DNA from: a virus
Taxonomy: Duplodnaviria > Caudoviricetes
Reading direction: 5' to 3' (one strand)
DNA: 64,000 nt
IMG/VR virus record: IMGVR_UViG_3300033066_001150
Span: 1 to 64,000 of that record
In this document: in pieces, positions 5,458 through 25,227 of the stretch
Layout: each line of letters opens with the position of its first letter
Position numbering within the stretch: position 1 is the first letter of the stretch
Program-made: the position numbers and the translations under genes
The notes under the pieces: model-generated
Seen by the model: only the letters and a program-made list of their open reading frames with translations
Database searches by the model: none
Told to the model about the DNA's origin: nothing

Positions 5458-5484
5458 GAGTGATTGCCTTATGACGGTTTGATT

Positions 5485-6916: not shown

Positions 6917-7372
6917 GCTACTTCCTTTTGCACTTTCCACAGATGTCCTGCTTCCCGCCACGGCGGCCCTTGTCCACTCGGAGCATCTTTCCACAGCGTT
7001 TGCAGTGAACAGGGATAGTCATCGCGAGAGGAGAAAACTTTCCGGGGCGACTAACGTTTCTGCTTGGGATCATGGGGTCCTCGCGTCGTCGTTTTGGATT
7101 TCGAAGGCGTGGTCTGCACAACGAACGCAGAGAAAAACAGGTCCCTCGTTCCACAGGAACCTCAAGCCCTCGGTCGTCCCACATCCATCACATTGTCGGA
7201 CGTACTCACAAGAACAACGACCTATGAATAGACGACGTGCGCAGTATGGACATTCGACGTCGCAACCTTCGTCGTCTTTGGGGGCTCGCAACATGACTTA
7301 TCGCTTATCCTTGGCTGTGTGTCACACTGTCGAATCCTGTTCAGGTCCTTCTCTGTTGTATTATCGTCAGAT

Positions 7373-7410
7373 AAAAAAGAACCGCAAGAGAAGGGCCCCT
7401 TGCGGTTCTT
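7373..7410 (-). terminator. intrinsic terminator
   Basis: Minus strand AAGAACCGCAAG-loop-CTTGCGGTTCTT followed by a T-run, downstream of 7432-8091. Confidence 0.7.
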
Positions 7411-7431
7411 GTTCGCAACGGACAGCCAGGA

Positions 7432-8091: not shown

Positions 8092-8219
8092 CTCGTCTCT
8101 CCAATTCCGGGGGAACTATGGCGCCCGTTGCGCCCGGTCGAACTGTCGACCGTTGTGCTAGTAATATCGGATCGCTGTCTTAGTCGACAAGAAAAATCTA
8201 GGCGGCTCGCAATTTTTCT

Positions 8220-9614: not shown

Positions 9615-10180
9615 GTTTCCGTTTCCTTATCATCTTGATATAGGGAGCAAAGACTGATCATGTCATAGGAAACTACATGATAGTCGAAATCGTCTCCACC
9701 CTCTGTTGAGTCGATCCCATTGTCCCCAACCTCTAGTCCATTTGGATGATGAGAGAGGAGTTCCCGGGCAATCACTTTAAGGCGTTTCTCCACGTCTTTT
9801 GGGGACCCACTGGCGTCCACCGCAAGACATAGCACCTTGCGTTGCTCCGTTTTGTTATCCGACATGGACTTCCCCTTGATGGTTCGATTTTCATATGTTG
9901 CGGTCACTCCTGCAGCACTGTCAAAGAAGAAATACCGGGGACCGGAAGACAATGGTTCTTGTTCCAACAAACTGAATGAAAATTCCGACACCCCAATGGA
10001 CAGAAACTCCCAGAACAGGGGCGGTGCATCCGAGTACATTCCGAGCCAAGGCCCGCTGTCGAGCTTCTGGCATTCTGCGAGCAATCGATCCCAACCCGCC
10101 TCTAGCATGTCACGGGTCTGTTGGTTTCTCCACGTTTCGCGAATAGGTGTCATCCCAGAAGCTCCAGTAACTTGTCCCAC
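9611..10180 (-). CDS. hypothetical protein
   Basis: Fills the gap in the operon; no motif recognised; start uncertain. Confidence 0.4.
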   Translation of the reverse strand: MGQVTGASGMTPIRETWRNQQTRDMLEAGWDRLLAECQKLDSGPWLGMYSDAPPLFWEFLSIGVSEFSFSLLEQEPLSSGPRYFFFDSAAGVTATYENRTIKGKSMSDNKTEQRKVLCLAVDASGSPKDVEKRLKVIARELLSHHPNGLEVGDNGIDSTEGGDDFDYHVVSYDMISLCSLYQDDKETET

Positions 10181-11385
10181 CGACTAGGGTCCCCACAATA
10201 ATCGTCAGACCAACCTTGACCGAGGGAATGAAATTTTTTGTGGTCCCGCCGTAGGGCCATGGAGCGGAGGTTCCCCGACCAGTCTTTCCAGTTCGCAACA
10301 GACTTGTGGATACCTTCGAACCAGTCCCGCACAAACGTCTTGAGGCTCGGGATCGAACTTCGCAGTTCCTTAGCAAATCGGAGCACTTTGGGGTCCACGT
10401 CTGTTCTCTTGGTCACGTCCGTTAATGCTTTCCAGAACACACCGTATTCCAACACGGAGTCCTGGATGGCGTCCATGAGCTGGGTCTTGGTCCCCTTGGG
10501 CCAATGAAGATGACGTAATTCGTTGTAGAGGGATGTTGTGGCTTGATCGTACTCTGTGTGTTTCTTGACTGACGTTGGTGTGACGTGATTTTCCGACTGG
10601 TGTTTGATGTTGTCAAACTTGCGCCGAAATGAACCAGCACTCAGGGCAACCGAAATGTATTTTTGACCAGCATGGTCACAGTACCATTTGAGTACAGACT
10701 TGATGATAGCTTTTTTGTTGGTCTTCCTCAAGATACGGAATTCGTTTGACCAATTCCTAAGACTGACTGGCCTTGTGATAAGATTTTTGGTATTGAGTGC
10801 GTCCTTTAATTTTGACGCACAATCGATGTCAAATTTTGATGGTGGTGTTTTCTCCGTTTCTAAACTTTCCAGAAATGGCATGTCTGTCTCCATCTCAACA
10901 CCGTCGCCGCCCGAAGGGCGCGACAGTTTTTGTTTTGTTTTAAGTTTATTATAATATGGCCCTCCACTTTTAGTGGAGGTTCCCTCCACTTTTAGTGGAG
11001 GGTCGGCTTGTGGCCCTCCACTTTTAGTGGAGGTTCCATTTCCTTGACCCTCCACTAAAAGTGGACCATCATCTGCTTTGGTTATGTCTATCAGTGGGGA
11101 AATTTGACGTGATTTCCCCACTTGGTTCACCGAAACTAACCCATTATTCTTTAGTTTCGATACACTGTTTCCAATGGCGTTTGGGCTAGAATTCAGTATA
11201 GCTGATAGCTTAGAATTGCTCGCAAAGCAGTATCCAACACTGCGGGAAAGTCCAAAAATCAGGCAGTAAAGTTGACGTTCCCCAGCCGATAGACTGCGGA
11301 GTGGTTCCACTTGAAACGACCAAAGAGGTATCCATATTCCATGGGATACCTCTTTGGGAATACCTTTTTCTTTGTTGGGTTTCAT
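10150..11385 (-). CDS. replication initiator protein (N-terminal HTH, lambda O-like layout)
   Basis: LSAGERQLY...GYCFASNSKLS...LKNNGLV HTH; internal iterons; lies between primase and helicase. Confidence 0.75.
   Translation of the reverse strand: MKPNKEKGIPKEVSHGIWIPLWSFQVEPLRSLSAGERQLYCLIFGLSRSVGYCFASNSKLSAILNSSPNAIGNSVSKLKNNGLVSVNQVGKSRQISPLIDITKADDGPLLVEGQGNGTSTKSGGPQADPPLKVEGTSTKSGGPYYNKLKTKQKLSRPSGGDGVEMETDMPFLESLETEKTPPSKFDIDCASKLKDALNTKNLITRPVSLRNWSNEFRILRKTNKKAIIKSVLKWYCDHAGQKYISVALSAGSFRRKFDNIKHQSENHVTPTSVKKHTEYDQATTSLYNELRHLHWPKGTKTQLMDAIQDSVLEYGVFWKALTDVTKRTDVDPKVLRFAKELRSSIPSLKTFVRDWFEGIHKSVANWKDWSGNLRSMALRRDHKKFHSLGQGWSDDYCGDPSRWDKLLELLG
10927..11065. repeat. putative replication origin: four palindromic iterons plus AT-rich tract
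   Basis: CCTCCACTTTTAGTGGAGG at 10961, 10983 and 11015; inverted partial copy at 11049-11065; AT-rich 10927-10957. Confidence 0.8.
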
Positions 11386-12257
11386 CAGGCAGCGTCCAAC
11401 AAAGAACGCAGATATCGGGTCTCTTTGGGCGTGGCACTCCCAGCGTCTTTGCTGTCCAAAACTACGTTCAACGTCTCCCCTGGAAAGGGCTCCAGTTCGT
11501 CGCAAATGGCACGGGCTCGACGTTGGGCTTCCGGTTCGTTGTCGTAGCAGATGACCCTTCTGGGGTACTTAGAGATGCGGAGAATTTGGGACCGGGAGTA
11601 GCCCGCTCCACACGTGCAAACAGCCCCCGGTCCAGTACGGAACACGTCAAACGGACCCTCGTGGACTATGCAGGCGTGTCGGCAATAGTCTTCCCCAAAG
11701 AGCAGAGATTTGTGGGGAATGGCTTCGTCTTGGGAGGGGGCAGAAATGTACCGGGTACCGTGGTCGGATAGGGACCGTGTCGTCCACGAAACAACACGTC
11801 CGAGGTATGTGATGGGAATGTAGATACGCCATTGCAACTGAGGGTGGAGACCAATGCCCCCGAGGTTCCACAGCCGCTTCATGTCCTTAACAGACAGGTC
11901 CCGTCCCCGTAGATACTCCCGGTGTGCCCGCATAAGAGGACGGACCCCACGGGGTTCCCGCAGAACCCCAGTGTGTTCCGTTTGTTGTTGGTACCGTGGG
12001 CGTTCTACGTTTTTTAGAAAGTGTTTGATACGGGACTGGGGGTTCCCCGACAGTTCGGCTAGTGTTTCAACTAGGTTATGAGGACCACACAGCCAACAGT
12101 TAACGTATCCGCCACGGGTATTGAGACCCATGTGATATTTAGAGGTTCCAGCCCCACAAAAAGGACAGTCGAAGTTGATCCAACCGTCGCGTCCGTGGTG
12201 GTGTCCTTCCGGGGCTGTGTCGATGTTCAGGTCCGCGAGAAGTTCGCGAAAATCCAT
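11385..12257 (-). CDS. DNA primase (Zn finger + TOPRIM)
   Basis: CPFC...NCWLC, YLRGR, IYIP, HEGPFD, CYDNE, KDAG. Confidence 0.85.
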   Translation of the reverse strand: MDFRELLADLNIDTAPEGHHHGRDGWINFDCPFCGAGTSKYHMGLNTRGGYVNCWLCGPHNLVETLAELSGNPQSRIKHFLKNVERPRYQQQTEHTGVLREPRGVRPLMRAHREYLRGRDLSVKDMKRLWNLGGIGLHPQLQWRIYIPITYLGRVVSWTTRSLSDHGTRYISAPSQDEAIPHKSLLFGEDYCRHACIVHEGPFDVFRTGPGAVCTCGAGYSRSQILRISKYPRRVICYDNEPEAQRRARAICDELEPFPGETLNVVLDSKDAGSATPKETRYLRSLLDAA

Positions 12258-12401
12258 AAGATGGGTCCGGTTACTCTAAATCTCGTACCGCGTACCATGT
12301 GCTAAGGCACAGCAAGGCCCCGAGGGTCGTTATCGTCGTCCATGGGTGGGCGACAAGCCAGTCCGTTAACCTGTCCATGTTTCTGCCCTTTGTTGCTCTA
12401 G

Positions 12402-12510
12402 AACACCCGCCCGGAGTCGAACCGGGTTACCAACGATTACATGGGTTGGACGTTGTCTCTTCCCGCTGGCATCTACATGGTTGGTGGTATACCGTATCCA
12501 CTCCGGGTGT
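12402..12510 (-). tRNA. degenerate tRNA-like element (possibly Tyr-GTA) with an insertion in the anticodon arm
   Basis: Acceptor ACACCCG/CGGGTGT, D-arm GTGG/CCAC, T-arm CCCGG-TTCGACT-CCGGG; about 35 extra nt in the anticodon region. Confidence 0.45.
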
Positions 12511-12675
12511 AATATGGCGGCAGACTCCCCCGCTGCCGCTTCGGGACGTAGCACCGGTCGGCTACAGATGGGTATCAGTTGATCTTACGCATGAGACACC
12601 TCCTGTTCTGTAGGGTGGGCAGGGGCTTCCTGTCAAGGGCCTCCCGTATATTCGGATGGGCTTGTTCCCGGTTCC

Positions 12676-14055
12676 CTAGGACTTCTTTTTCCTTTGGCGC
12701 TTGGCGATTTCTTGGTCCAGCAGATCCATCAGGTCCTCTTCGTTGGTGGGAACACCTCCATCCAATGTCTGGTCCAGAATTCCTTGCTTGTGTTGAATGA
12801 GTCGAATAAGATCGTGTTCGATGGTGTCGTAGACCACAAGGTAATAGCAGGACACGCCTCGGGTTTGGCTAATGCGGTGGGCACGGGCAATGGCCTGACT
12901 GACTTCCCCTGGTGTCCACGGGATCTCAATAAGCCCCACGGACCGGCTGGCCGTCAACGTATAACCGGTCCCCCCGGCTTGGACGTTAGCTAGAAGGAGT
13001 TTCGTCTTGGGGGATGTTTGGAACTTGTCAACGGCTAGTTGTCGCTTGTGCCCTGTAACAGACCCGTCCACAAGCACAGACCGGGAACGGTAGTGTTCCT
13101 GCAGGGGTTTCAGCACCTTTTTATGAATACCGAAAAGGATAAGCTTATCGTCGGTCTCTTCGAAGAACGTGTCCACCCATTCCTTGACCGCCTGCAGTTT
13201 CAGTTCCCCAATAAGACGCCGGAGGTAGCCACGTTTGACCATACGTTCTGCCCGCACGGCCCGGTTAGCCTTGGCGGGGGACTTCTTGTAAAGCCAGTTC
13301 ACGAAGTCTTGTTCGGCCTCCTCGTATTCCTTCCGGTTCTTGATATCTAATAGAACGATGTTGTGGGTGATGGGTGGCAGGTCCTTGAGTACGTCTCGTT
13401 TCAGACGTCGGATCATCCCATGTTTTTTCAGGCGGCGGTGAAGTACGTCGAGATTTTTGGCTCCCTTGTATTCCCACTGCCCCCGGAAGTTCCTTTGCGG
13501 GTCACAATACTTCCAAGCGAACCGGGGAAATTTCCGGTATTTCTTGGGGAACAGGATGTGTAGAATGGGGAACAGCTCGGCGGGGCGGTTTGTCAACGGG
13601 GTCCCACTGAGGGCAATGACGTGGGGGACTCCCTGACACAAGGCGGTTACGTTCTTGGACCGTTGGGACTCCGTGTTTTTGCAGTAGTGAGCCTCGTCAA
13701 TGATAATCAGGTCGGGCTTGAGACTGGACAGGTACTCGACCCATTCTCCCAGCACATCATAGTTGATAATGATGACACGGTGCCGGAGGAAATGGCTCCG
13801 TCTTTTGGGGGGCTTCCGGCCGCTACAGATGGCGGACCGAATTCCCGTATGGTGTAGGACCTCCCGTTCCCAGTTGTATTTGAGGGAGGCGGGGCACACC
13901 ACAATGCATAGAGCTTCTTCGTCGAAGTTCCAGTCGTACCATGTAATGGATTGCAGGGTCTTACCGAGACCCATCTCATCCGCTAACAGTACCCGCCCAC
14001 CAAATTTCGAGATCAACTTGACCCCTTGCTTCTGGTACGGGAACAGCTTTGTCAT
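12676..14055 (-). CDS. SNF2-family helicase
   Basis: LADEMGLGKT, IIDEAH, LSGTP, QAIARAHRISQ. Confidence 0.92.
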   Translation of the reverse strand: MTKLFPYQKQGVKLISKFGGRVLLADEMGLGKTLQSITWYDWNFDEEALCIVVCPASLKYNWEREVLHHTGIRSAICSGRKPPKRRSHFLRHRVIIINYDVLGEWVEYLSSLKPDLIIIDEAHYCKNTESQRSKNVTALCQGVPHVIALSGTPLTNRPAELFPILHILFPKKYRKFPRFAWKYCDPQRNFRGQWEYKGAKNLDVLHRRLKKHGMIRRLKRDVLKDLPPITHNIVLLDIKNRKEYEEAEQDFVNWLYKKSPAKANRAVRAERMVKRGYLRRLIGELKLQAVKEWVDTFFEETDDKLILFGIHKKVLKPLQEHYRSRSVLVDGSVTGHKRQLAVDKFQTSPKTKLLLANVQAGGTGYTLTASRSVGLIEIPWTPGEVSQAIARAHRISQTRGVSCYYLVVYDTIEHDLIRLIQHKQGILDQTLDGGVPTNEEDLMDLLDQEIAKRQRKKKS

Positions 14056-14197
14056 GGATTTCTTTTCTTGTGATAGAAATGGCTTCGGTACTGACAAACC
14101 CAAATTTCACACGGTTTCCTTGAATGGACAACACGCGGAGGGTTACACCGTTTCCAATATAGATTTCCTCGTTGGGACGTCTACTTAGTACAAGCAT
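13976..14197 (-). CDS. csrA: CsrA-like RNA-binding protein
   Basis: MLVLSRRPNEEIYIG...RVKFGF...ITRKEI. Confidence 0.75.
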   Translation of the reverse strand: MLVLSRRPNEEIYIGNGVTLRVLSIQGNRVKFGFVSTEAISITRKEIHDKAVPVPEARGQVDLEIWWAGTVSG

Positions 14198-14447
14198 CGG
14201 GACCTCCAAGACGGGGGCGCGAACTGTAGGATTTGAAGGGAGGTTCTGTCTCCCGTCACGCCCCGTTTTTAGAAAGAATTACCCGTGGGGGGTTGGTCCT
14301 GTTCCTCTGTTCCCTCGTAGCGTGAACCACTTCTACGCGGGAACAGGATCAGCCCCAAAAGAAGAACCGTATTGTGGAACCGTGGGAAGGGTCGCTCCAA
14401 CACACGATCACAGGTCCGGCTCGTCTACGCACGGGCCACGTGGATTG

Positions 14448-14984
14448 TTACGCCAGCGCCGTACTAATTTCGGAGAAGGCACGGGTAACCCGGCTAGTGT
14501 CCCATCCCATACCGTCAAGATACTGACGGAGGGTGTGTTTCACTTGTTTCCGATCGTCTTCCTGCATCACACGGAGCAAGCCCGTAGGAGTGTCCAGTAC
14601 CAAGGAAACAATGGCGCGGGCGTCTTCTGAGATCTCATCCAAGAAGTCTGTCAGGGAGAAGTGAGGGGGACTTACCGAAGGTTCCACTTCCGTGGTTGTG
14701 TTGAACCGGACACGACGCTTTGTCTCGGTACGAACAAGTTCCAGGAGGGTATGACCCACCACGGTTCGGACGTAGGTAGGAAAGGACCCCTTGGCTGGGT
14801 CGTACCTCCTGTAGGCGATTGTGAAGGCGACACAGCCTTCTGAAAAGAGTTCTTCCCTTGTCCCGTAGTGATCGCCGTATCGGCGATGGAACCGATGCAC
14901 TGAGTCCCAGATAAGAAGCTCGACGTCTTTGAATGATTCGTTGGCGAGTTCCTTACGAGCTGCGGCGGCTGTTGTGGTTGCCAT
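14448..14984 (-). CDS. sigma-70 region-2-like factor
   Basis: EELFSEGCVAFTIAYRRYDPAKGSFPTYV. Confidence 0.7.
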   Translation of the reverse strand: MATTTAAAARKELANESFKDVELLIWDSVHRFHRRYGDHYGTREELFSEGCVAFTIAYRRYDPAKGSFPTYVRTVVGHTLLELVRTETKRRVRFNTTTEVEPSVSPPHFSLTDFLDEISEDARAIVSLVLDTPTGLLRVMQEDDRKQVKHTLRQYLDGMGWDTSRVTRAFSEISTALA

Positions 14985-15021
14985 ATTGGCTTCCTTTGAT
15001 AAGGGGGAACGAACTACCTCC

Positions 15022-15450
15022 CTAGCGGGGAGAACGTGCTATGCTACGCAGGGGGCGCCCAGCCGTCAACTGGGTGTGGGGGAAAATCAACGTGTGGCCT
15101 TTGCTCTCTATCCTCGCTACTATCAAGGCGCGATCGGTTTCGGTAGGGATGTAGTTCCCCATCAGTTGCGCCGGGAGAGAATGAAAGGCTGTGGTCTTGT
15201 CGGTGACGTTGAATCCCCGTCGTCTACATTCGGCGTGGATGGCACTATACCGAATGGCGAGGTATCTAAGCTTATCGTAGAAGAATCTGACGTGTCCTGT
15301 GCCTAAGCAAAATGTAGGAGGTAGGTTATCGAAGTTCTTGGTTCGTCCTTTTTTGATGGCGTTTGGGATTCGTGTGATTTCGCGATGCTCGGCGAGCAGC
15401 ATTTTGTCGGGAAGCTCTCGTGGGCCCACACCGACATTGATTCTAGTCAT
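15022..15450 (-). CDS. denV: pyrimidine-dimer DNA glycosylase (endonuclease V)
   Basis: MTRIN...LLAEHREITRI...FCLGTGHVRFFYDKLRYL...ECRRRGF. Confidence 0.9.
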   Translation of the reverse strand: MTRINVGVGPRELPDKMLLAEHREITRIPNAIKKGRTKNFDNLPPTFCLGTGHVRFFYDKLRYLAIRYSAIHAECRRRGFNVTDKTTAFHSLPAQLMGNYIPTETDRALIVARIESKGHTLIFPHTQLTAGRPLRSIARSPR

Positions 15451-16198
15451 TTGGGAGACCTCGAACGTTGTGGGCGATAGGGGTTTCTCGTTTGGGATTG
15501 AGTTCGTATTGATACCCATCTGACCAGCCGGTTTGGAATTCGGTGGAATGCAATCTGCTTTTAGCAATGGCTTTGTGCTTCCCAGGTTTTGCTTTGAGTA
15601 CGTTGGTTTCGTACTCCACAAGTGCGTTGTCCTTGAGAAGGATGAGTCCGGTTCCCGAGGTGGCTTCGTCCTGTGATTGTTTCTTCAGTTTGTTGGCCTG
15701 ATTCGCAAGCCCACTACAGAATCCATCGCAGTAATAGTAGTGCCGCTGTCCCCACGGTGTTCCTACCTTGGCACGGGCCATAGAACGAACCACGACAAGC
15801 AGTTCAAGGAACAGAAAACGAGCAGCCAGCACGTCTTGCGCCATGCCAAAGAACACAAGCTTGACTTGCGTCTTCCTTTTTTGTGTCGCTTCGTCCCACT
15901 TGTGTGACTTCTGGTAGTACCATCGCACATCACACACATCAGCAGCAGTGGACATGAGGTACTGCTCGAAGCGATCCATTTTTGATGCGGTGCGGGCTTC
16001 CTCTTCTTTGATTTCGATGGTCGCTGGGCCGGCGGAGGCTTGTTTTGTCAGCACCTCCTCCATGGCGATGTTGTGCTCGTCCATAAGTCGACGGGCAATT
16101 TTCATTGCGGCTTCGACTTCAGCTTCGGAGGCTCCGTTGTCCCGGGTCCGCTTCATCAGGGCTTCGAGTTTGGAGAGAATGCTGTCGCGGTTTGACAT
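15443..16198 (-). CDS. DUF2786-family protein
   Basis: KLEALM...ASEAEVEAAMKIARRLMDEHNI. Confidence 0.7.
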   Translation of the reverse strand: MSNRDSILSKLEALMKRTRDNGASEAEVEAAMKIARRLMDEHNIAMEEVLTKQASAGPATIEIKEEEARTASKMDRFEQYLMSTAADVCDVRWYYQKSHKWDEATQKRKTQVKLVFFGMAQDVLAARFLFLELLVVVRSMARAKVGTPWGQRHYYYCDGFCSGLANQANKLKKQSQDEATSGTGLILLKDNALVEYETNVLKAKPGKHKAIAKSRLHSTEFQTGWSDGYQYELNPKRETPIAHNVRGLPND

Positions 16199-16733
16199 GT
16201 TGGTTCCTGTGTCGAAAAGGTTGCTCGTTCCCACCCCCAAGATTGAGGAGGGGAACGAGCAACCCGGCTGGTGGGGCACTATACCGATCCCACCGAGACA
16301 CCGTGCGCCGGGTTACCCGTTGGTCTAGCCGTATGTAGAAGGCTGTTGTCGGGGAGCGCTGGTCTCCCCATCGCCGGACCGTTGGTCCTGTTGGGTCTCC
16401 ATGAACGTCGTTATCGGTTCAACGACGTTCGTAAGAGACGGTGAAGCGTACTGCATTGGTTTCCTTAGGCAGTGGCGATCGAGACCCGTGGGACGGCGGC
16501 GAGGGAGACCAATCCGCGGCGATGCAGTTTTTTGCGTTCCTGTCGTGCCCGTCCTTTGGGCAACTGGGCCATCAGGACAGCTGCCTTTTCGGGGGTGTTG
16601 GCGACCGTCCCTTTACTGCCGAGGCGAATGCCGGTTGGGGTGTGTTGGACAGCGAGCTCGCACATGATCTAGGGTTCCTTTCTGCTGGGGTTGGTCGGGT
16701 CACGTTTACTATCGGAAGTCCAACCTGATCCGG

Positions 16734-16955
16734 TCAGTAATCAAAGTCAGGTTCGCTGGCGTTGTCTTCGGCCAGTTCTGCGAGCCGGTTTTGTTCGTCG
16801 TCGTCCAGTTCCCAGTCGAGTTTCTCCCCGGTCTCGTCGTCCGTGATTTTGTAGTCTTCCACGTAGGCGGACAGGATACCCACGTCGGGTTCAGCCGGCT
16901 GCATCCACAGCTTCACGGTCACTTCCCGGTCACGTAGGGTGGTCTGAATTTGCAT
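16734..16955 (-). CDS. small acidic hypothetical protein
   Basis: RBS AAGGA; AEPDVGI motif. Confidence 0.55.
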   Translation of the reverse strand: MQIQTTLRDREVTVKLWMQPAEPDVGILSAYVEDYKITDDETGEKLDWELDDDEQNRLAELAEDNASEPDFDY

Positions 16956-17160
16956 GGCGGGTTCCTTTTCCCACGGGGCAGTTCTTACGGCAGTCCTCAC
17001 AGACCGCCATTTCGTGTTCGCTACGTGTGGGGTCGATCACCCCGCTAATGTACTCCCCAGTCTCCGGCAGTCGACAGGACCGGCACGTGCACCGACCCGA
17101 GGAACTGGGGTGTCCGTTGTAGCAATTGCAACGCGCGGACCAAGCAGGTTTGCTAGGCAT

Positions 17161-17448
17161 CTAGGGCATCTCCATAAAACGACGCAGAACAGTTTCCGCT
17201 ACCACACGGGCGCCTCGTTTGTAGGGAATGATCGTGTTCTTGTGCTTCCCATCAACTTCGGCCACGACCCGCATTTTATCTTCGAGGACGTAATGCATCA
17301 CAATCACTTCTCGTGTGTTCCACGAGTTGGGAATGAAACAGCGCACGTCATGGGAGTTGTTGATGGGGCGGGTTTCGATCCCGGCACGGTGGAGCAGGAC
17401 ACGTACCTCTTCCAGTTCAGGCGATGGGGCGGTTTCGTAGTTGATCAT
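17161..17448 (-). CDS. hypothetical protein
   Basis: RBS AAAGGA, downstream of the last twister copy. Confidence 0.55.
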   Translation of the reverse strand: MINYETAPSPELEEVRVLLHRAGIETRPINNSHDVRCFIPNSWNTREVIVMHYVLEDKMRVVAEVDGKHKNTIIPYKRGARVVAETVLRRFMEMP

Positions 17449-17484: not shown

Positions 17485-17547
17485 GGGGACTTGGAACCCC
17501 TGCGGAACAGCCGCAGCGCATTACAGGACCGAAGTCCTGTCCTCTGC
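17485..17547 (-). ncRNA. twister-like ribozyme (P5-type permutation)
   Basis: GCAGAGGA-CAGGAC(TTCG)GTCCTG-TAATGC-GC-P3-GGGGTTCCAAGTCCCC. Confidence 0.8.
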
Positions 17548-17855
17548 TATGCAAGGGGAATAACGAAGTCCCGGTTGAACCCGTTGTGTCCCCCGTTTGG
17601 GTGATAGTAGTCATAGGCGTACCGGAGGTAGACTTTTCCGTTGGCGAATGACACGTGGATGATGCACTCGATCCGTTCGAAGATGGGTCCGACGGGACCA
17701 CACATGGCCGGGTTAATTCTCACCCGGTCCACGAAGTAGTAGGACTCCAACTTCTTCAGTGTGACCTTGTCCTCCAGATAGAGGGTTGTGCCGATGGTCT
17801 GGAACGTGTGCTGTTCCACGATTTCACAAATCTTGGTGACGGTGCTGACGGTCAT
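17547..17855 (-). CDS. hypothetical early protein
   Basis: Stop TAG overlaps the ribozyme 5' end. Confidence 0.55.
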   Translation of the reverse strand: MTVSTVTKICEIVEQHTFQTIGTTLYLEDKVTLKKLESYYFVDRVRINPAMCGPVGPIFERIECIIHVSFANGKVYLRYAYDYYHPNGGHNGFNRDFVIPLA

Positions 17856-18118
17856 GGGTTCACTTCCACTTTGTTGAGACGGATACCGGTTACGGGGGTC
17901 TTGGTCTGGACACACGCAGCCAAGGTTTGGAGGTTCAAGTTAATGTTGGTCAGGGCGACCGCGTGTTTACGACAGAGGAACTCCAGCTCCGGGTCGGGGC
18001 ACCCTCGGGTCACCTCCGCCAAGCGGTTTGACAAGTGCCCGAGCATGGCCCCGATTTCTTCCAACGATTTCTCCATATCAGTCTTCCTTTGTAAGTGACT
18101 CCTCGTGTTGTTGGACAC
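17852..18118 (-). CDS. hypothetical early protein
   Basis: Overlaps both neighbours. Confidence 0.5.
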   Translation of the reverse strand: MSNNTRSHLQRKTDMEKSLEEIGAMLGHLSNRLAEVTRGCPDPELEFLCRKHAVALTNINLNLQTLAACVQTKTPVTGIRLNKVEVNP

Positions 18119-19481
18119 GTTCCTCTTCCGTGTAGTTCCGAAGGATTTTCACACGGGTCAGAATGGTTTGTTTCACACCCTTATACTCACTGTGATCTTT
18201 CACGGTCCCTTGAATTTGGAACTGGCCCCGTTCCGTGAGCCACGTCGTGGAACCCGACGCGAACCACACGAACACGTTGCCAAGGTCATCCGTCATGTTA
18301 TGGACGCCGGTCGTTCCATAGTACCCTTCGCTGGAGAAAATGCGGTCGCACGTCACATCCAAGACCAGCTTGTCCTTGACCTTGCCCACATGCTGGGACA
18401 CAGAACGTTCCCCTTTGGTAGGAACTTTCAAAGTCCCCGTCGCCCGGCGGTAGGCTTGCAACAGGGAGGCAGCCACTCCTGTCGTCTTTCGGGACACGTA
18501 CCCGGCCCGGGCAATAAGATTGACGTTGTAGAGGTAGTCCTCCCCTTCCGTGGGGCTGAGGTCTTTGGCCCACACCAACGCGGCCTCGACCTCTTCAACG
18601 TATTCCGGCACGTGGTCGTCGATCTTGGTCTTCCACACCTTCCAGTCTTTATACGCCTCCGTGCCGGACATGGGTGGGTTGAAATAGTAGAGCACGTAAT
18701 CGGCGGTCGCCGTCACGCGGTCCCCCATCTCGGCCCGTTCGTTGGCTTTCCCCCGGGATACCCAACCCTCCACACGGATCACCCCAGCCGTGACCTCCAA
18801 GAACCGAACAAGGTCCCAGCATTCCGGCTGGCGACAGCCCCCACCCAGCCAGTCATTATTCTCGGCGTCCGCACAAAGACCATTCAGGTCGAAGAACAGT
18901 TCCGCCAACTTGGCAAGGGCATGGGGGTCGGTGTGTCCAAGGAAGTCTTTGATACACTGGCGCCCGACCATATTCGTCCGTCCGTCGTCGTGTTGGACCA
19001 CGAACGTTTCGGTCCGTTTTCGCTTGGTGCTGCAGTGGTCACAGTACCCGACCCGGTTTCGGTACACACTGGGGACCGTGTGACCCGGCACAGTTCGCAC
19101 CATGTTTTCCCGGGTCCCGTCCTCGAGGTCCACGGGCGACAGGCACCCCACGAGGGACCAGCCGTCGTACTTTGGGGACACCCCGGACACGGTGGCATAG
19201 TGCCATTGCCGGACAAGTCCCGTCATCGTGGTTCCGGTGCCGGTGTACGCGTGAGCCTTCCCCACAATCGTTCGGCCTTCTTCGTCACGGGTCAACGTGT
19301 GGTTCGCCCACCACGTCCGGCTCCCTGTCTTGTCGTTCTCGAACTCAAACTCCGTGAATGCGGGACTGGTCACCAACGCGATCCCGCTGGTCCCCAGTTT
19401 CTTGGCCCGCTTGTTGAGGCGGGCCAGTTCGTCGTATAACCGGGGCAGGTTCTGTTCCGGGATGACATAGGTTTGTTCCAT
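18078..19481 (-). CDS. conserved phage protein with Zn-binding motif and C-terminal OB-fold-like domain
   Basis: CDHC...VGRQC; C-terminal HVGKVKDK...GTVKDHSEYKGVKQTILTRV. Confidence 0.7.
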   Translation of the reverse strand: MEQTYVIPEQNLPRLYDELARLNKRAKKLGTSGIALVTSPAFTEFEFENDKTGSRTWWANHTLTRDEEGRTIVGKAHAYTGTGTTMTGLVRQWHYATVSGVSPKYDGWSLVGCLSPVDLEDGTRENMVRTVPGHTVPSVYRNRVGYCDHCSTKRKRTETFVVQHDDGRTNMVGRQCIKDFLGHTDPHALAKLAELFFDLNGLCADAENNDWLGGGCRQPECWDLVRFLEVTAGVIRVEGWVSRGKANERAEMGDRVTATADYVLYYFNPPMSGTEAYKDWKVWKTKIDDHVPEYVEEVEAALVWAKDLSPTEGEDYLYNVNLIARAGYVSRKTTGVAASLLQAYRRATGTLKVPTKGERSVSQHVGKVKDKLVLDVTCDRIFSSEGYYGTTGVHNMTDDLGNVFVWFASGSTTWLTERGQFQIQGTVKDHSEYKGVKQTILTRVKILRNYTEEERVQQHEESLTKED

Positions 19482-19498
19482 GGCCGGTGTTCCTTCTA

Positions 19499-19566
19499 CT
19501 GGGCTTGGGACCAGCCTCCCAACATTCGGGAGGACGCATTAGAGGGCTTGTGGCCCTCCCCTCTGC
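19499..19566 (-). ncRNA. twister-like ribozyme (divergent copy)
   Basis: GCAGAGGG-GAGGGC(CACAA)GCCCTC-TAATGC-GT-P3-CTGGTCCCAAGCCCAG; T1 is CCC/GGG instead of TCC/GGA. Confidence 0.8.
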
Positions 19567-19820
19567 TAGAGTTGTTGTGGGCAGTGCGCCCGAAGGAACA
19601 GGACGATCTGTTCCTCCCGTTCGAGTTGAGTGAGTCGTCGACCGTTGACAGCCGTGTCGAACATTTTTGGTTGCTCGCGGGTCGTGTCCACAAGGTTGAC
19701 CAATGCGGACAGGATACAGGTGCTCTCCTGATGCGGTTGTGCTGAGTAGGTGCAGTACCTCCGCAGGGTGTCGATCAGTTCCAGTTCGAGTGACGTGTTG
19801 TCTACATAAACGCTAGACAT
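19566..19820 (-). CDS. hypothetical early protein
   Basis: RBS GGAG; stop abuts the ribozyme. Confidence 0.5.
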   Translation of the reverse strand: MSSVYVDNTSLELELIDTLRRYCTYSAQPHQESTCILSALVNLVDTTREQPKMFDTAVNGRRLTQLEREEQIVLFLRAHCPQQL

Positions 19821-20011
19821 GGCGATGCTCCGTTTGAAGTTGACTGATTTGAATTTGCAGGTTCTCAATATACCCTTCATGGGCATAGACCATGACCCCA
19901 CCGATATTCCAGTGTCGGCGGTACCGGGGCCAGCAGTCTCGCATCCATGCTGGGAACTGACGTACAAGCTTGTCGTACGTCTCGCGGTTTACGAATAGCG
20001 AACGTTGCATT

Positions 20012-20296
20012 TCAGGTACTCACGACTGTGATGGAATAGTACATGGCCAGGATCAGCCACTCGGATCCGAACACTACGGGCGCGAACCGCCCCTCCTCGT
20101 TGACCGCGATCACGTATCGGCAACGTGTGGGGTCCCCGCCGGACCGTTGGATGGCCTTGTTGAGGGCCGCGATAGCGTTGCTTCGGGTCGCATAGGTCGT
20201 GCGCGTTTGCAGAACCTGTAACATCCCCGGCAGGGGCTGAGTTGACTTGGTGGCGGGATGGCGAGCACCTTCCTGGCCACTGATAGGACTGCTCAT
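20012..20296 (-). CDS. hypothetical early protein
   Basis: RBS AAGGAAACGCC-ATG right after a ribozyme; RYVIAVNEEGRFAPV. Confidence 0.6.
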   Translation of the reverse strand: MSSPISGQEGARHPATKSTQPLPGMLQVLQTRTTYATRSNAIAALNKAIQRSGGDPTRCRYVIAVNEEGRFAPVVFGSEWLILAMYYSITVVST

Positions 20297-20312
20297 GGCG
20301 TTTCCTTATGAC

Positions 20313-20380
20313 GGGGACTTGGAACCCCTGTGACACGTTGTCACAGTGCATTACAGGGTGCTTCGCACCCTGTCCTCTGC
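20313..20380 (-). ncRNA. twister-like ribozyme
   Basis: GCAGAGGA-CAGGGTGC(GAA)GCACCCTG-TAATGC-AC-P3-GGGGTTCCAAGTCCCC. Confidence 0.8.
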
Positions 20381-20381
20381 A

Positions 20382-21023
20382 TTAGTCGTGGTCGAACGTT
20401 TCCACGTATAAGGCGGGGCAGTCAAAGAACTGAGCCGTCTCGGCGGACATTGGCTTGCTGTGCCGACTCCGCTTCGCGGACACACGTAAGCCCGTTCCAA
20501 ACCCACTGGGAACGAACGTGATGGACTTCCCTTGCTTCAGTTGTGCCGTTCGCTCCACACGGCTCTCCGGCGTGATACGGTAGGGGATGCCGGGGATGTC
20601 CAGCCGGCGGGCGTCCACCTCGTTGAACTTCACCACCCGGTCGCACTGTTCAGCGATCACTTGACTGGGGTCCGGCATATCCTTTAACGCCTTGGCGTCG
20701 TATGGCGAGTAGAACGAGTCCTCCACACCAAGGCGGTCGAACGACCGCCACCCCTTGCTCGACGCGAAGTTCGTGTGCCCCGAGTAGACCACATGACTCT
20801 TCTTCGAGCGGAAGTCCACCCGCTCTTCGATACAGAACACGATGATGATGCTGTCTGACTTCAGCACGATGGACAGCATCCCCGGCATGGAGTCCTTTCC
20901 TCCATAAGGAATCCCGCTCGTGTAGAAACCGTCCAGTTCCTCACGGGACCATCCCTCGGGGGCTTTGATGGACTTGGCGAACTCGCGCATACCCTTGGTC
21001 ACTTCCGGCTTGGTCGTAGTCAT
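20382..21023 (-). CDS. hypothetical early protein
   Basis: RBS GAGG; flanked by ribozymes. Confidence 0.6.
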   Translation of the reverse strand: MTTTKPEVTKGMREFAKSIKAPEGWSREELDGFYTSGIPYGGKDSMPGMLSIVLKSDSIIIVFCIEERVDFRSKKSHVVYSGHTNFASSKGWRSFDRLGVEDSFYSPYDAKALKDMPDPSQVIAEQCDRVVKFNEVDARRLDIPGIPYRITPESRVERTAQLKQGKSITFVPSGFGTGLRVSAKRSRHSKPMSAETAQFFDCPALYVETFDHD

Positions 21024-21039
21024 GGTCGTGTACCTCACT

Positions 21040-21107
21040 GGGGACTTGGAACCCCTGACACACGTCGTGTCAGTGCATTACAGGGTGCTTCGCACCCTGT
21101 CCTCTGC
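21040..21107 (-). ncRNA. twister-like ribozyme
   Basis: Same core, with P3 CTGACAC/GTGTCAG. Confidence 0.8.
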
Positions 21108-21108
21108 G

Positions 21109-21348
21109 TTAGCCAGCGAGTGCGGCGTTACACGCCTCCGCGGTTTTCCGTCCCTTGTCGGTCAGTCGTATCGTGTAGGACTGAACCGTGATCAACTCCA
21201 GCGCGACCATCAGGGATCGAATAGCCTCGTACTTTTCCATGTCCATCCCCATTGCGAGGTAGATGGAGCTCTCCGGGGCTGGGGCGTCCGTTTCCAGTAG
21301 CGTTGTGAGAATGGCGGCGACCGTTGCGTAGACTTCTTTCTTGGACAT
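21109..21348 (-). CDS. small winged-helix-like protein
   Basis: IYLAMG...IRLTDKGR; flanked by ribozymes. Confidence 0.55.
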   Translation of the reverse strand: MSKKEVYATVAAILTTLLETDAPAPESSIYLAMGMDMEKYEAIRSLMVALELITVQSYTIRLTDKGRKTAEACNAALAG

Positions 21349-21363
21349 GGTGTTTTCCTTACT

Positions 21364-21426
21364 GCGGACTTGGAACCGCCCGATACATTATCGGGTGCAT
21401 TACAGGACCGAAGTCCTGTCCTCTGC
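21364..21426 (-). ncRNA. twister-like ribozyme (P4 compensatory variant)
   Basis: P4 GCGG/CCGC replaces GGGG/CCCC; P3 CCCGATA/TATCGGG. Confidence 0.8.
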
Positions 21427-21725
21427 TACTCGTTCGGGGCCATGGGTCCGTTGTAGACCTGTCCCTTGATCTTAATTGTAATGATGTTCCCGAGGGGGAT
21501 GGACCGGAACCCCTCGGCTTGCATGTCCCATACGGGCAGCAGTCCCTTGTCGAGGGCGTTGTAGGCGGGACCGTTCCCCGTCTCGCCCTTGACCTTGTTC
21601 ACCGTGCCGAACCGGCACAGCATATCCCGGACCTCCCCAGTGGTACGCTTGATGAACTTCACTGAGAAGATTGTACCCCCGGCTTGCTTGCGTACGAAAC
21701 TAGCCAACTGTTTGACGGTAGCCAT
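21426..21725 (-). CDS. WYL_2/SH3-barrel-like protein
   Basis: FSVKFIKRTTGEVRDM...VWDMQAEGFRSI. Confidence 0.65.
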   Translation of the reverse strand: MATVKQLASFVRKQAGGTIFSVKFIKRTTGEVRDMLCRFGTVNKVKGETGNGPAYNALDKGLLPVWDMQAEGFRSIPLGNIITIKIKGQVYNGPMAPNE

Positions 21726-21739
21726 TCTATCACTCCACT

Positions 21740-21804
21740 GGGGACTTGGAACCCCTGTCCTACGTTAGGACAGCGCATTACAGGACCGAAGTCCTGTCCT
21801 CTGC
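21740..21804 (-). ncRNA. twister-like ribozyme
   Basis: Same core, P1 with UUCG loop, P3 CTGTCCTA/TAGGACAG. Confidence 0.8.
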
Positions 21805-22253
21805 TAGAGACAGACCGTGGGTTGGAACAGGAACAACATGGCATTCCACCGGGCGATGCAGTTGTCGACCTCTTGCCAGAACGATTTGTACTCAATCACT
21901 GTGAGCTTGGTTTTGAGCTCCCCGCGAATCCTCTCCAGAATTTGCTCCACTTCCCCCTCTTCTAGTGGGTCGTCATTGTAGCAGGGTTCATGTTCCATCG
22001 CCTCGGTCACTCGTCGTTTGAACTCGTCCCGCGTTACGACTTCGAACCGGTCCCCGTGATGGTACGCTACGACCCGGATGTCGTTTTCAGCACAAGCAAG
22101 GCTGTGGTCGATTTCCACCCCGAAGCTGAAGTCTTCGTCCATTCGGTAGTCGAACCGGAGGAACCATCGGTCCCGACCATTAACCTGTCCCATGCTGAGA
22201 CAGGGGAGGTTGATGTTCGTTGTCGTTTGGGAGCTGAGGCATGTTACAGTCAT
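21804..22253 (-). CDS. hypothetical early protein
   Basis: RBS AAGGAAACGCC-ATG; flanked by ribozymes. Confidence 0.55.
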   Translation of the reverse strand: MTVTCLSSQTTTNINLPCLSMGQVNGRDRWFLRFDYRMDEDFSFGVEIDHSLACAENDIRVVAYHHGDRFEVVTRDEFKRRVTEAMEHEPCYNDDPLEEGEVEQILERIRGELKTKLTVIEYKSFWQEVDNCIARWNAMLFLFQPTVCL

Positions 22254-22269
22254 GGCGTTTCCTTATGAC

Positions 22270-22338
22270 GGGGACTTGGAACCCCTGACCCAACATCGGG
22301 TCAGTGCATTACAGGGTGCGAAGCGCCCTGTCCTCTGC
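22270..22338 (-). ncRNA. twister-like ribozyme
   Basis: Same core, P3 CTGACCC/GGGTCAG. Confidence 0.8.
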
Positions 22339-22339
22339 A

Positions 22340-22519
22340 TTAGTTGTCTTTGTTGGGGTTCTTGTAGTGCGGGCAGCGTCCCTTGCGGAGCATTCGCATG
22401 TAGAAGCCCCGTGCCTTGAGCAGGGAATCAAATGACTTGCTCAGGCGCGCTGTGCCTTTGGTGTTGTCGTACGTGACCAGAACTTCTGGGTCTGGTGTGC
22501 CGATAGGACGTGGACCCAT
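22340..22519 (-). CDS. small basic hypothetical protein
   Basis: RBS GGAG; MGPRPIG start; flanked by ribozymes. Confidence 0.55.
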   Translation of the reverse strand: MGPRPIGTPDPEVLVTYDNTKGTARLSKSFDSLLKARGFYMRMLRKGRCPHYKNPNKDN

Positions 22520-22533
22520 CTTATTACTCCACT

Positions 22534-22601
22534 GGGGACTTGGAACCCCTCGTTCACGTTGAACGAGTGCATTACAGGGTGCTTCGCACCCTGTCCTCTG
22601 C
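22534..22601 (-). ncRNA. twister-like ribozyme
   Basis: Same core, P3 CTCGTTCA/TGAACGAG. Confidence 0.8.
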
Positions 22602-22602
22602 A

Positions 22603-23268
22603 TTACCAGCTGTGATACGCTTGTCGGGCACAGTCCCACAACGCCTTCTCCGGGTCGTTGGGGTCGGCGTTGCTGGTTGAGTACGACCCGAAGGAACCCG
22701 ACGACCCATTGCACACGGTCATCGCGCACTCACGTGACGTGCGGCCCATCCAGTCCGTGGTCGGGGGCCCGATACGGACTGTCATGATCTCCCAGCCCTT
22801 CTTACGCTCCACGTAGGCTTCCATGACGGGAATACGTACCGTGTAGACCTCGTTGCCGTCCGGGGCAGTGAAGTGTTGAAGGACGTTAAGTCCCTCTTCT
22901 CCACATGCCGCCTTGACTGCCGCGAGTTCCTCGGCCATACGGGCTTCGTAGGCCGCGTGTCGTTCGTCGTCCGCGGCCTTCCGTTCGGCCCGGCGTTTCT
23001 TATCGGACTCTTCTCGCCATTCCAACTGAACCCAGTTCTTGTCCGTGTTCTCCACGCACTCAAGGTGCGTTATGGCCTTCCGTTCCACGGGCTCCCCGCT
23101 TTCACGGAACAGAACCGGGGACTCTTCCACGTAGAAGCGTCCAGTCTTGGTCACCTTCGTCACGTTGACCCGACGGAACGTTCCCTTGCGGCTGTCCCGC
23201 AGAATGACCACGGACCCCACGGACACATTCCGGGGGCGGGTAAGAAATTCGTACTTTTGTTCGGTCAT
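22603..23268 (-). CDS. hypothetical early protein
   Basis: RBS GGAG; flanked by ribozymes. Confidence 0.6.
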   Translation of the reverse strand: MTEQKYEFLTRPRNVSVGSVVILRDSRKGTFRRVNVTKVTKTGRFYVEESPVLFRESGEPVERKAITHLECVENTDKNWVQLEWREESDKKRRAERKAADDERHAAYEARMAEELAAVKAACGEEGLNVLQHFTAPDGNEVYTVRIPVMEAYVERKKGWEIMTVRIGPPTTDWMGRTSRECAMTVCNGSSGSFGSYSTSNADPNDPEKALWDCARQAYHSW

Positions 23269-23282
23269 CTTATTACTCCACT

Positions 23283-23348
23283 GGGGACTTGGAACCCCTG
23301 ACCCAACATCGGGTCAGTGCATTACAGGGGCGAACCCCTGTCCTCTGC
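23283..23348 (-). ncRNA. twister-like ribozyme
   Basis: Same core; P3 identical to the copy at 22270. Confidence 0.8.
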
Positions 23349-23349
23349 A

Positions 23350-24207
23350 TTACTTCGCGGCTTCTGTCAGTTGGGTCAGTTGCTTCTTGGTCAGTTTGGC
23401 GGGTTCGCCCCACCGAGTGGACCCTTTCTTCCCGGCCACGTAGTGCATTCGCATTGTGGCATGACTCATACCCTTGCAACCAAGGGTCTCAATCGCAAGG
23501 GTCAGGGCATCGAACTCCCAACCTTTGGCCCCCAGTGTGCGACACACGGCGCAGGCGTTCAGGCCGAACACCGTGTAACGGGCTTTGGTTTTCTTGTCGG
23601 TGGCCTTCGTCGTTTCGGCTGTCTTCTCAGCCTTGACTGCGGGGACGGCACTCGAATCGGTGGGAATGTACTCGTCCCCGTTCTTGGTCGCGAACCCGTG
23701 GGTCAACAGGAACTTGAGGTGCCCCGCCATCCGGCCCGAGTTGAATCCTGTCGCCTTGCACAAGGCGGCGGCGGTACGATGTCCGGCCAGGAAGGCAACG
23801 TTGATGAGGTTCGCTTGCGACCCCACACGATTCCCCATGGCGTCCCGTTCGACGGGGGCCTTGGCGGCCTTCTCTTCCTTGGCGGCTTTCTTCTCCGCTT
23901 TGGCTTCTTCGCGGGCGGCGGCTTTCTCCGATTTGGTGGCCAGTTTGCCGGCCATCAACGTGTTCATTTCACGTGCCGACAATGGGCGTTCTTCCGGCCA
24001 TTCTTCGCTCAGCCACTGTTTGACATCCCGTGGGTCCACAATGTCGAACGAACGGGAGTAGAATACAAGGGCCTCGACCATGTAGTGTCGGTCGTTCTTC
24101 AGTCCGATTTCCCGGACCTTGTGAGCCCAAGCAATCACTCCATCACGCGAGGCGTCTTTGAGCTCGACCGGACATTTGCCGGCCGGCGTTGCAATTTTGT
24201 TGATCAT
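23350..24207 (-). CDS. Lys/Ala-rich DNA-binding protein with winged-HTH-like domain
   Basis: RDAMGNRVGSQANLIN...GHLKFLLTHGFA, paralogous to 7432-8091. Confidence 0.6.
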   Translation of the reverse strand: MINKIATPAGKCPVELKDASRDGVIAWAHKVREIGLKNDRHYMVEALVFYSRSFDIVDPRDVKQWLSEEWPEERPLSAREMNTLMAGKLATKSEKAAAREEAKAEKKAAKEEKAAKAPVERDAMGNRVGSQANLINVAFLAGHRTAAALCKATGFNSGRMAGHLKFLLTHGFATKNGDEYIPTDSSAVPAVKAEKTAETTKATDKKTKARYTVFGLNACAVCRTLGAKGWEFDALTLAIETLGCKGMSHATMRMHYVAGKKGSTRWGEPAKLTKKQLTQLTEAAK

Positions 24208-24221
24208 GGTCTTGTCCTGTT

Positions 24222-24289
24222 CGGGCTTCGAACCGTCCCCACACGTTGCGGGGGCCACATTACGTCCCAGTGATGGGACGTCGTCTGTG
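24222..24289 (-). ncRNA. twister-like ribozyme (most divergent, first in the transcript)
   Basis: CACA-GA-CGA-CGTCCCA(TCAC)TGGGACG-TAA-TGTG-GC-P3-CGGTTCGAAGCCCG; P2, T1 (TCG/CGA) and T2 (GC/GC) all covary. Confidence 0.75.
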
Positions 24290-25227
24290 TTGCATCTAAA
24301 CTCACCGTATGCTCTATTCTGCCGGGGAATGTACCGGTCCACCGCGCAGTCGGTGCTGCGGGCCAGAAGAAGTCGAGTTGTCAAAGATCAAACGGGGCAC
24401 ATGGTTCGTTGCGTGTGTCACCCCCACGTTCCAACGCGACGTAGCGCATTGGACCCCGTGGGCCATCTTAGCAACGGTCCCCCTAGCCGGTCCCGGGTTC
24501 CTCAGGGCGCGAAACGCCCAAAGTCCAGGCCGGCATGCATTTGAAAAAGAACGTTTGGGGCGCTTGGCCCCGTGTGCCCCGTTGCGGGGCGCACATAGGG
24601 ATAACGGAAACGGGGCCGGTCCGAACACGCAAAAAGGGGCGCGAAAATCACTTTTTTTGAAACTTTTCAATGCGCAGGTCGTTTTCGTTGTTTGGGGTCA
24701 AAACCGCCTAGAAACTTGCGGTCGGACTGGCGGATCGCCGGGAAAACAAGGGGATCGCCACCGCTGGAGAAGGACGCCGCCCAATTTCGTCTCAGGGGCG
24801 CGACCGCCTACGAGCCCGATACTTAGGTCATCCCCGTCAAAAGACGCCCCTGAGACGACCGTAGGCGGCGTCGGGTGTACAAGATGGGTTCGACCTGTAA
24901 ACAAACCTGACGTCTGGACATCTGTACAAAATGCTTCGCTTTTGTACAGATGTCTACAAAAGCGAACAGGTTTGACGTTTTGTCGGGGTTTCTACTGCTT
25001 TTTGGATTTTGACTTGACACGGGTCGGTGGCAGTCGGCTGGCGCAGTACACGGCGGGCTGTCCCCACAATGATTCGGTCCACAGTTTGGCGTGGTCTCCA
25101 AATAGTTTCTTGGCGCGAATGTTACGGCATTCTCGGTCGTCGTCGCGAATGACCATCGGTTCGTCCATGTTGTACTCCCGTTAGTTTGACTTGATCAAGG
25201 CACTTTATCATCGGTCGTGAACTGCCG

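Follow-up and report, generated by a model that had tools for sequence, protein, structure and literature searches.

The early transcript of phage T7 is cut by host RNase III at double-stranded RNA hairpins between cistrons, leaving 5'-phosphate and 3'-OH ends. Clustered self-cleaving ribozymes have been proposed to process phage messages as well: passages of Perreault et al. (2011; PMC3088659) describe clustered hammerheads that flank prophage genes, propose processing to mRNAs as long as an operon or one gene, and report triple hammerhead arrays that cleave in vitro and in E. coli. In bacteria, twisters and hammerheads are enriched near each other and near Mu-like phage genes, the reason for which has been called unknown (PMC10085705, PMC6765202), and the processing of polycistronic transcripts by clustered ribozymes has already been suggested (PMC5408937, PMC6765202, PMC10085705). 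The twister class of Roth et al. (2014) includes the type-P5 twister (RF02684, clan CL00120), as reviewed in PMC5408937. The twister scissile bond lies between a less conserved U next to P1 and a highly conserved A, and its cleavage yields a 2',3'-cyclic phosphate and a 5'-OH (PMC5408937, PMC8782182). Here we analyze ten type-P5 twister copies that punctuate a block of small genes in the window, by which we mean the first 64 kb of the linear 97,978-bp IMG/VR virus record IMGVR_UViG_3300033066_001150 (estimated completeness 90%), which stems from an uncultivated phage.

A preliminary description of the window had noticed ten twister-like elements, had read them as dividing an early mRNA into gene-sized pieces, and had named a covariance-model scan as a check. 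Judged by their sequences, the ten elements are genuine twisters of the known class and constitute no new kind of RNA or principle. Most probably they are functional, and cut one long minus-strand message into gene-sized RNAs.

Results

Identification of ten Twister-P5 copies

A cmscan search against Rfam 15, in which Twister-P5 (RF02684) has a gathering score of 37.6 bits, matched this family ten times, always on the minus strand and over full model positions 1-58, at the places where the preliminary description had put its elements. Nine of the ten copies scored 38.1-43.9 bits, at or above the gathering score, and the tenth (22270-22339) scored 34.0 bits, so that the covariance-model scan recovered every element. 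No other Rfam family was matched at E<0.05 anywhere in the window, and the Rfam scan found no further twister copies in the rest of the 97,978-bp record. A match of 18 bits to a covariance model built from the window copies (35541-35614, plus strand) lacked the GCAGAG, UAA, and AAG core and was treated as chance. The ten copies are as follows, with open reading frames (ORFs) and genes named as in the list further below.

24221-24289 (minus): copy 1, the leader copy; 38.1 bits; predicted cut 24262/24261; P2 CACA/UGUG and T1 CGA/UCG; no upstream ORF ending there
23283-23349 (minus): copy 2; 41.4 bits; predicted cut 23324/23323; directly after the TAA of gene A
22534-22602 (minus): copy 3; 41.5 bits; predicted cut 22574/22573; directly after the TAA of gene B
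22270-22339 (minus): copy 4; 34.0 bits; predicted cut 22311/22310; C.A mismatch in P1; P3 identical to that of copy 2
21740-21805 (minus): copy 5; 39.1 bits; predicted cut 21780/21779; the TAG of gene D overlaps the P2' strand (G of TAG = G of GCA)
21364-21427 (minus): copy 6; 43.9 bits; predicted cut 21402/21401; overlapped by the TAG of gene E; P4 GCGG/CCGC
21040-21108 (minus): copy 7; 39.5 bits; predicted cut 21080/21079; after the TAA of gene F
20313-20381 (minus): copy 8; 41.4 bits; predicted cut 20353/20352; after the TAA of gene G
19499-19567 (minus): copy 9; 41.1 bits; predicted cut 19541/19540; T1 GGG/CCC and P4 CUGG/CCAG; overlapped by the TAG of gene J
17485-17548 (minus): copy 10, the last; 38.6 bits; predicted cut 17523/17522; overlapped by the TAG of gene M; 36 nt to the ATG at 17448

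Each copy could be parsed into the order P2' (GCA)-GA-T1' (3 nt)-P1 hairpin-U^AA-P2 (UGC)-T2 (2 nt)-P3 hairpin-P4-U-T1-AA-T2'-P4', where the caret marks the predicted cut; for copy 2 the cut falls at the position that had been given as an example. All ten copies carry the motifs CAGA, UAAUG, GGU, and AAG unchanged. The only departures from the conserved bases of loops L1 and L4 occur in copy 1 (G to A in P2' and G to C in T1'), and both are compensated on the partner strand. In the minimum free energy fold of every copy, P2 encloses P1 and is followed by P3 and then P4. These folds and the cmscan alignments confirm the P5-type circular permutation, with the ends open after P4 and P1 closed by a loop, in agreement with the layout originally assigned.

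Covariation of helices and pseudoknots

A covariance model built from the ten window copies without pseudoknots was used to align 38 copies from the window phage and four viral contigs. Pairs were counted on a structure to which the pseudoknots T1 and T2 were added after alignment; the Rfam model likewise does not score the two pseudoknots. Among the 38 copies from five phages, 97.9% of the cells form standard pairs. Shuffled columns gave 69.3% (none of 500 shuffles reached the observed value), and sliding the partners by one to three columns gave at most 48.7%. Both sides change in 18 of the 23 pairs. By helix, two-sided changes occur in all five pairs of P1 (99.5% paired), in one pair of P2 (100% paired), and in two pairs of P4 (94.7% paired). 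The pseudoknots, neither of which was in the aligning model, both show two-sided changes and are 99.1% (T1) and 94.7% (T2) paired; two leader copies, displaced by one base in the model's alignment, are among the T2 misses. A separate parse of T1 in 34 copies gave GGA/UCC in 16, GGG/CCC in 16, CGA/UCG in one, and a mismatch in one, such that 33 of the 34 are fully paired.

The compensatory variants listed in the preliminary description were all present in the window, namely GGA/UCC, GGG/CCC, and CGA/UCG in T1, GGGG/CCCC, GCGG/CCGC, and CUGG/CCAG in P4, and GCA/UGC and CACA/UGUG in P2. Its statement that P1 and P3 vary but stay paired holds in general and fails in copy 4, where the C.A mismatch lies inside P1. 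The catalytic core is invariant, and compensatory change preserves five helices and two pseudoknots, which shows that selection acts on the folded RNA.

Placement between genes

The copies separate thirteen small genes at the start of the left arm, most of which belong to no known family:

17550-24207 (minus): the thirteen small genes between ribozymes, ORFs with start codons 13-17 nt past each ribozyme
23353-24207 (minus): gene A
22606-23268 (minus): gene B
22343-22519 (minus): gene C
21807-22253 (minus): gene D
21429-21725 (minus): gene E, matching phrog_2267 and weakly a WYL_2/Sm-like SH3 fold
21112-21348 (minus): gene F, with a weak winged helix-turn-helix match
20385-21023 (minus): gene G
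19569-20296 (minus): genes H, I, and J
17550-19481 (minus): genes K, L, and M, of which K matches phrog_2319

All nine copies other than the leader copy begin at a stop codon, which abuts or overlaps the first ribozyme base. In five of them TAA and one further base precede GCAGAGG, while in four the G of TAG starts the GCA strand (TA-GCAGAGG). Where TAG is fused in this way, the stop codon takes the place of the fourth P2 pair found in the Rfam consensus. At the other end, the spacers between the final base of P4 and the following ATG measure 13, 14, 14, 16, 14, 15, 16, 16, 17, and 36 nt, where the 36 nt belong to copy 10, and they contain GGAG or AAGGA. Genes A, B, C, D, E, F, and G thus stand singly between copies and H-I-J and K-L-M form three-gene units, beyond which the operon continues free of ribozymes past copy 10. 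The earlier reading of nine copies at an upstream stop codon and one in the leader, all ending just before the next ribosome-binding site and delimiting seven single-gene and two three-gene units, is borne out by these counts.

A scan of 16.5-25.5 kb found promoter-like and terminator-like sites to be no commoner than in shuffled sequence, and the junctions from stop codon to ribozyme leave no space for promoters. Given the lack of room for internal promoters and the lack of terminators, a single polycistronic transcript that bears all copies is plausible. The label "early" for this operon derives solely from its position.

The leader copy and its conserved leader

Copy 1 lies at the edge of a gap between divergent gene blocks:

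24290-24550 (minus): conserved non-coding leader/control region, directly upstream of copy 1

This leader of about 260 nt is 89% identical at the DNA level, over 350 nt, to the related contig G001, and its alignment with G001 and a second related contig, G002, has a mean column identity of 94% (the rows of the two contigs are identical here). The proteins that flank it are far less conserved (50-87% amino-acid identity to those of G001 and G002). The leader has no Rfam match (24290-24550). Its substitutions relative to G001 fall evenly over the three codon positions (16/10/11), for which reason it is read as non-coding. Two ORFs that span it (minus strand 24314-24670 and plus strand 24309-25184) were rejected as genes, as they show no codon-position bias and a flat GC content at third positions. 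The region may be an early promoter/operator or a structured leader.

No ORF ends at copy 1, which occupies the 3' end of the leader. As this copy has no upstream gene to detach, its selected benefit would lie at least partly in the new 5' end of the downstream RNA, which suggests that a standard 5' end is part of what the ribozyme provides.

Arrays in other phages and reshuffling of cassettes

A pattern search of IMG/VR returned 78 stretches with twister-P5-like sequences, and five whole records (G001 to G005) were scanned with Rfam. The richest was G004, a complete 82.9-kb phage with 15 twister-P5 copies in 9.4 kb. G001 and G002 had seven matches each, and an eighth copy, in the leader, was detected in G001 by the covariance model of the window copies. 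G003 had three copies at the end of its record, and G005 had two to four. Most copies in these other arrays are also fused to a stop codon. The phage G004 is distantly related to that of the window; its copies lie at 1417-10804 between small genes, many of them lack P3, and its array is followed, as in the window, by a helicase homologue on the same strand (11380-11988, 34% identical).

G001 and G002 are true relatives of the window phage and are near-identical to each other over the array region; a search for more relatives that used protein K and a leader 25-mer found only these two. Their array genes run in the order A', E', D', F', K', M', such that D and E are swapped relative to the window. 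Their arrays lack the genes B, C, G, H, I, J, and L, and K' and M' are separated by a ribozyme at the place that gene L occupies in the window. The window's own copies are mosaics. For example, copies 5 and 10 share a 5' half at 100% identity over 36 nt, copies 3, 7, and 8 have the same P1, and copies 4 and 8 have the same stretch from P4 to the ATG. From sequence comparison, ribozyme-bounded cassettes have evidently been gained, lost, and reordered between related phages.

Some details of individual copies were also recorded. The leader twister of G001 (10099-10170), unreported by the Rfam scan, has CAG for the conserved AAG in loop L4 (A to C). Another copy of G001 (12937-13008) is a chimera of a GGA-type 5' half and a CCC-type 3' half with an A.C mismatch in T1. 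Both copies may be impaired. In the window, the P3 stems differ in almost every copy, and the loop apex mostly follows A-A/G-Y-G-U, with AACGU in four copies (e.g., 24241-24249 and 22551-22557). We make no claim for this apex as a protein or tertiary contact, as G001 and G003 show it more weakly and the many copies of G004 without P3 do not have it.

Gene content beyond the array

The window has two divergent gene blocks, one extending leftward on the minus strand from about 24.3 kb and the other rightward from about 25.2 kb. The right arm encodes a small and a large terminase, a portal fusion, a 1,477-aa Mu-F-like protein, a topoisomerase IB, and tail genes; on the basis of the terminase, portal, Mu-F, and replication genes, the record is a phage. 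Its large terminase has only remote matches (25-31%) among cultured phages and no relative in 185,579 prokaryote genomes. Protein K is 33% identical to a protein of an Acidobacteria phage annotated as "RecT-like". A search for tRNA genes found none. The left arm continues beyond the array with the following features, and a clamp gene is found there as well.

8223-17448 (minus): ribozyme-free continuation of the operon, with small ORFs, a pyrimidine-dimer glycosylase, a sigma-70-family factor, a helicase, a replication initiator, and a DnaB-like helicase
12679-14103 (minus): helicase
14451-14984 (minus): phage-encoded sigma-70-family factor (region 2 match), just downstream of the array on the same strand
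15025-15621 (minus): pyrimidine-dimer DNA glycosylase, just downstream of the array on the same strand

Inside the replication-initiator gene, at 10957-11071, a 27-nt unit whose core is inverted (CCCTCCACT-TTTAG-TGGAGG) occurs four times. These units are iteron-like, and a replication origin may lie there. In the right arm, a 59-nt coding repeat occurs at 11 sites (38265-49185, plus strand) spread over four head-region ORFs, namely the portal fusion, the Mu-F-like protein, the topoisomerase IB ORF, and a 1,217-aa ORF. It encodes approximately N-A-F-C-P-T-G-P-G-G-G-x-D-x-x-C. Because silent positions differ among the sites, the conserved entity is the peptide, which may function as linker, cleavage site, or metal-binding tag. 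The Mu-F-like 1,477-aa virion protein (40382-44812, plus strand) also has, at residues ~785-872, a weak match to the 2H phosphoesterases ("2'-5' RNA ligase superfamily"; E 3e-5, below the Pfam cut-off). Enzymes with this fold have 2',3'-cyclic phosphates and cyclic nucleotides as their substrates, and any link of the match to the products of the ribozymes would be pure speculation.

Discussion

Proposed self-processing of an operon transcript

Under the reading that we favor, transcription of the minus strand would start at about 24.3-24.5 kb, within the divergent control region. Each copy would fold as it emerges and, in the cell, would cleave itself between the P1-closing U and the invariant A of UAAUGC. 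The predicted products are seven RNAs of one gene each (A to G), two that span three genes (HIJ and KLM), and a long tail RNA, which would carry the sigma factor and the replication genes. The nature of their ends follows from the P5 permutation and the established chemistry of twisters, by which a P1 hairpin would be left at each 3' end and the P3 and P4 hairpins at each 5' end. Specifically, the upstream product would keep GCAGA-T1' and the P1 hairpin and end about 25-30 nt past the stop codon in a 2',3'-cyclic phosphate, and the downstream product would have 5'-OH-AAUGY at its start, with the P3 and P4 hairpins next and the Shine-Dalgarno site after them. The two halves should separate readily, because after the cut they are joined by no more than P2 and T1, of 3 bp each.

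Exonucleases and 5'-end-dependent decay are expected to act more slowly on RNAs whose ends are hairpin-capped and have non-standard termini. The pay-off for the phage could be a set of uncoupled, hairpin-protected, uniform-ended mRNAs, whose stability and translation would be controlled gene by gene without a host RNase; such an effect on stability or translation is a conjecture.

Several observations weigh against processing of this kind. No promoter is recognizable upstream of copy 1 in the scan of 16.5-25.5 kb. Copy 4, whose P1 mismatch is the sole blemish within the window, scores below the Rfam threshold. Additionally, the literature still describes the purpose of clustered ribozymes in bacteria and phages as unknown (PMC6765202, PMC10085705).

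Alternative explanations

The strongest alternative, and one compatible with self-processing, is that the ribozymes serve mainly as DNA joints at which recombination shuffles cassettes, with RNA cleavage as a secondary matter. It is a real possibility, though we lean against it as the main function. The copies do amount to near-repeats of 65-70 bp at every gene boundary; cassettes are reordered or absent in G001 and G002, where a ribozyme replaces gene L; and the copies of the window are mosaics, as is the G001 chimera with its T1 mismatch. Plain repeats, however, would serve such joints equally well, whereas here a folded RNA is under selection. The crossover points, moreover, cannot be mapped, as the orthologous hairpins have diverged, and the comparison covers one related lineage.

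Both roles could be combined, in that twister units might be portable "gene plugs" that provide uniform RNA ends and, at the same time, stop-fused DNA crossover points for cassettes. We offer this tentatively and regard it as possible but doubtful. If true, every early gene including the first would receive a self-made, hairpin-capped start with a 5'-OH, each gene with a copy after it would end hairpin-capped 25-30 nt past its stop codon, and the whole would resemble an integron-like cassette system without an integrase.

The fusion with stop codons raises the further idea that translation gates cleavage. A terminating ribosome would cover P2', the GA, T1', and part of P1, so that the cut could occur only once the ribosome has left, or only on untranslated RNA, and the fate of an mRNA would be coupled to its translation. 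The fusion is present in all nine non-leader copies, and the TAG-fused copies sacrifice their fourth P2 pair to it. It is also strongly enriched in unrelated phages: among 65 unique viral matches to the twister-P5 pattern with enough upstream sequence, there are 26 in which an ORF of 50 or more codons has its stop ending 0-2 nt before the C of CAGAGG, with peaks at offsets 0 and -2, while other offsets have from zero to five occurrences each. Yet genome compaction, or cassette joints at gene ends, would give the same fusion, the leader copy has no stop codon, and about 60% of the viral twister-P5 matches are unfused. Gated cleavage is therefore unlikely in our estimate.

It is far less probable still that the excised units are ligated into circular single-gene mRNAs. 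The 5'-OH and 2',3'-cyclic-phosphate ends do suit the chemistry of RtcB-type ligases, and most units pair the 3' half of one copy with the 5' half of the next such that P2 and T1 match. Against this, an RtcB or RNA-ligase domain was not found in the 98-kb record, and the T1 halves are mismatched in the gene A unit and the KLM unit. Finally, that the copies are inactive relics or selfish repeats without a role for the phage, as the P1 mismatch of copy 4 and the A-to-C change in the conserved AA of loop L4 in the G001 leader copy might suggest, is the least credible reading of all, given that the core is invariant in all ten copies, the helices are kept by compensatory change, and all copies lie on the coding strand at exact gene boundaries in an arrangement kept in related and unrelated phages.

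Comparison with known systems

Self-processing by functional twisters thus remains the preferred account, and the locus offers a compact natural test bed for the role of ribozyme clusters in phages, with ten variants in 6.8 kb and predictable cut sites. Copy 1 separates a function at the 5' end from the separation of cistrons, and the two reshuffled related contigs allow comparison. The copies could also serve as similar but non-identical insulator parts for synthetic operons. We found no paper on a ten-copy twister array, its stop-codon fusion, or the reshuffling of its cassettes, where Roth (2014) and Weinberg (2015) are known to us on the subject of arrays through reviews only.

With the twister class the window copies share the order of elements, the invariant core, the double pseudoknot, the U^A site adjoining P1, and a match over the full length of the model. 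They differ from the consensus in that T1 is mostly GGA/UCC rather than GGG/CCC, P2 has 3 bp where the stop codon overlaps, and all ten have P3. The reports of clustered twisters likewise concern twisters that lie within kilobases of each other in phage-type DNA, and the window phage has a Mu-F-like head protein; those reports give a statistical association, whereas the array of the window fills nine of nine consecutive junctions in a near-complete phage genome.

The preliminary description had called the array a protein-free analogue of the T7 RNase III system. The likeness of function stands, since in both cases an early polycistronic message would be cut between cistrons into units that keep terminal hairpins. 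Membership in that system does not, as the intergenic elements are twister folds with short helices of 3-9 bp and not long imperfect duplexes. T7 relies on a protein enzyme, while the predicted cut here is made by the RNA itself and leaves a 5'-OH and a 2',3'-cyclic phosphate, so the analogy is functional only.

The closest counterparts are the hammerhead arrays in the passages of Perreault et al. (2011; PMC3088659). There, too, a phage transcript carries several ribozymes that flank single genes or short gene blocks, and the same processing hypothesis was put forward. The differences are that those passages describe the hammerhead class in two or three copies, as against ten twisters here, and that the fusion with stop codons and the leader copy are features of the window that they do not describe. 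With ten coding-strand copies delimiting seven one-gene and two three-gene units, the array is a large and very regular example of an arrangement that has been proposed for phages since 2011.

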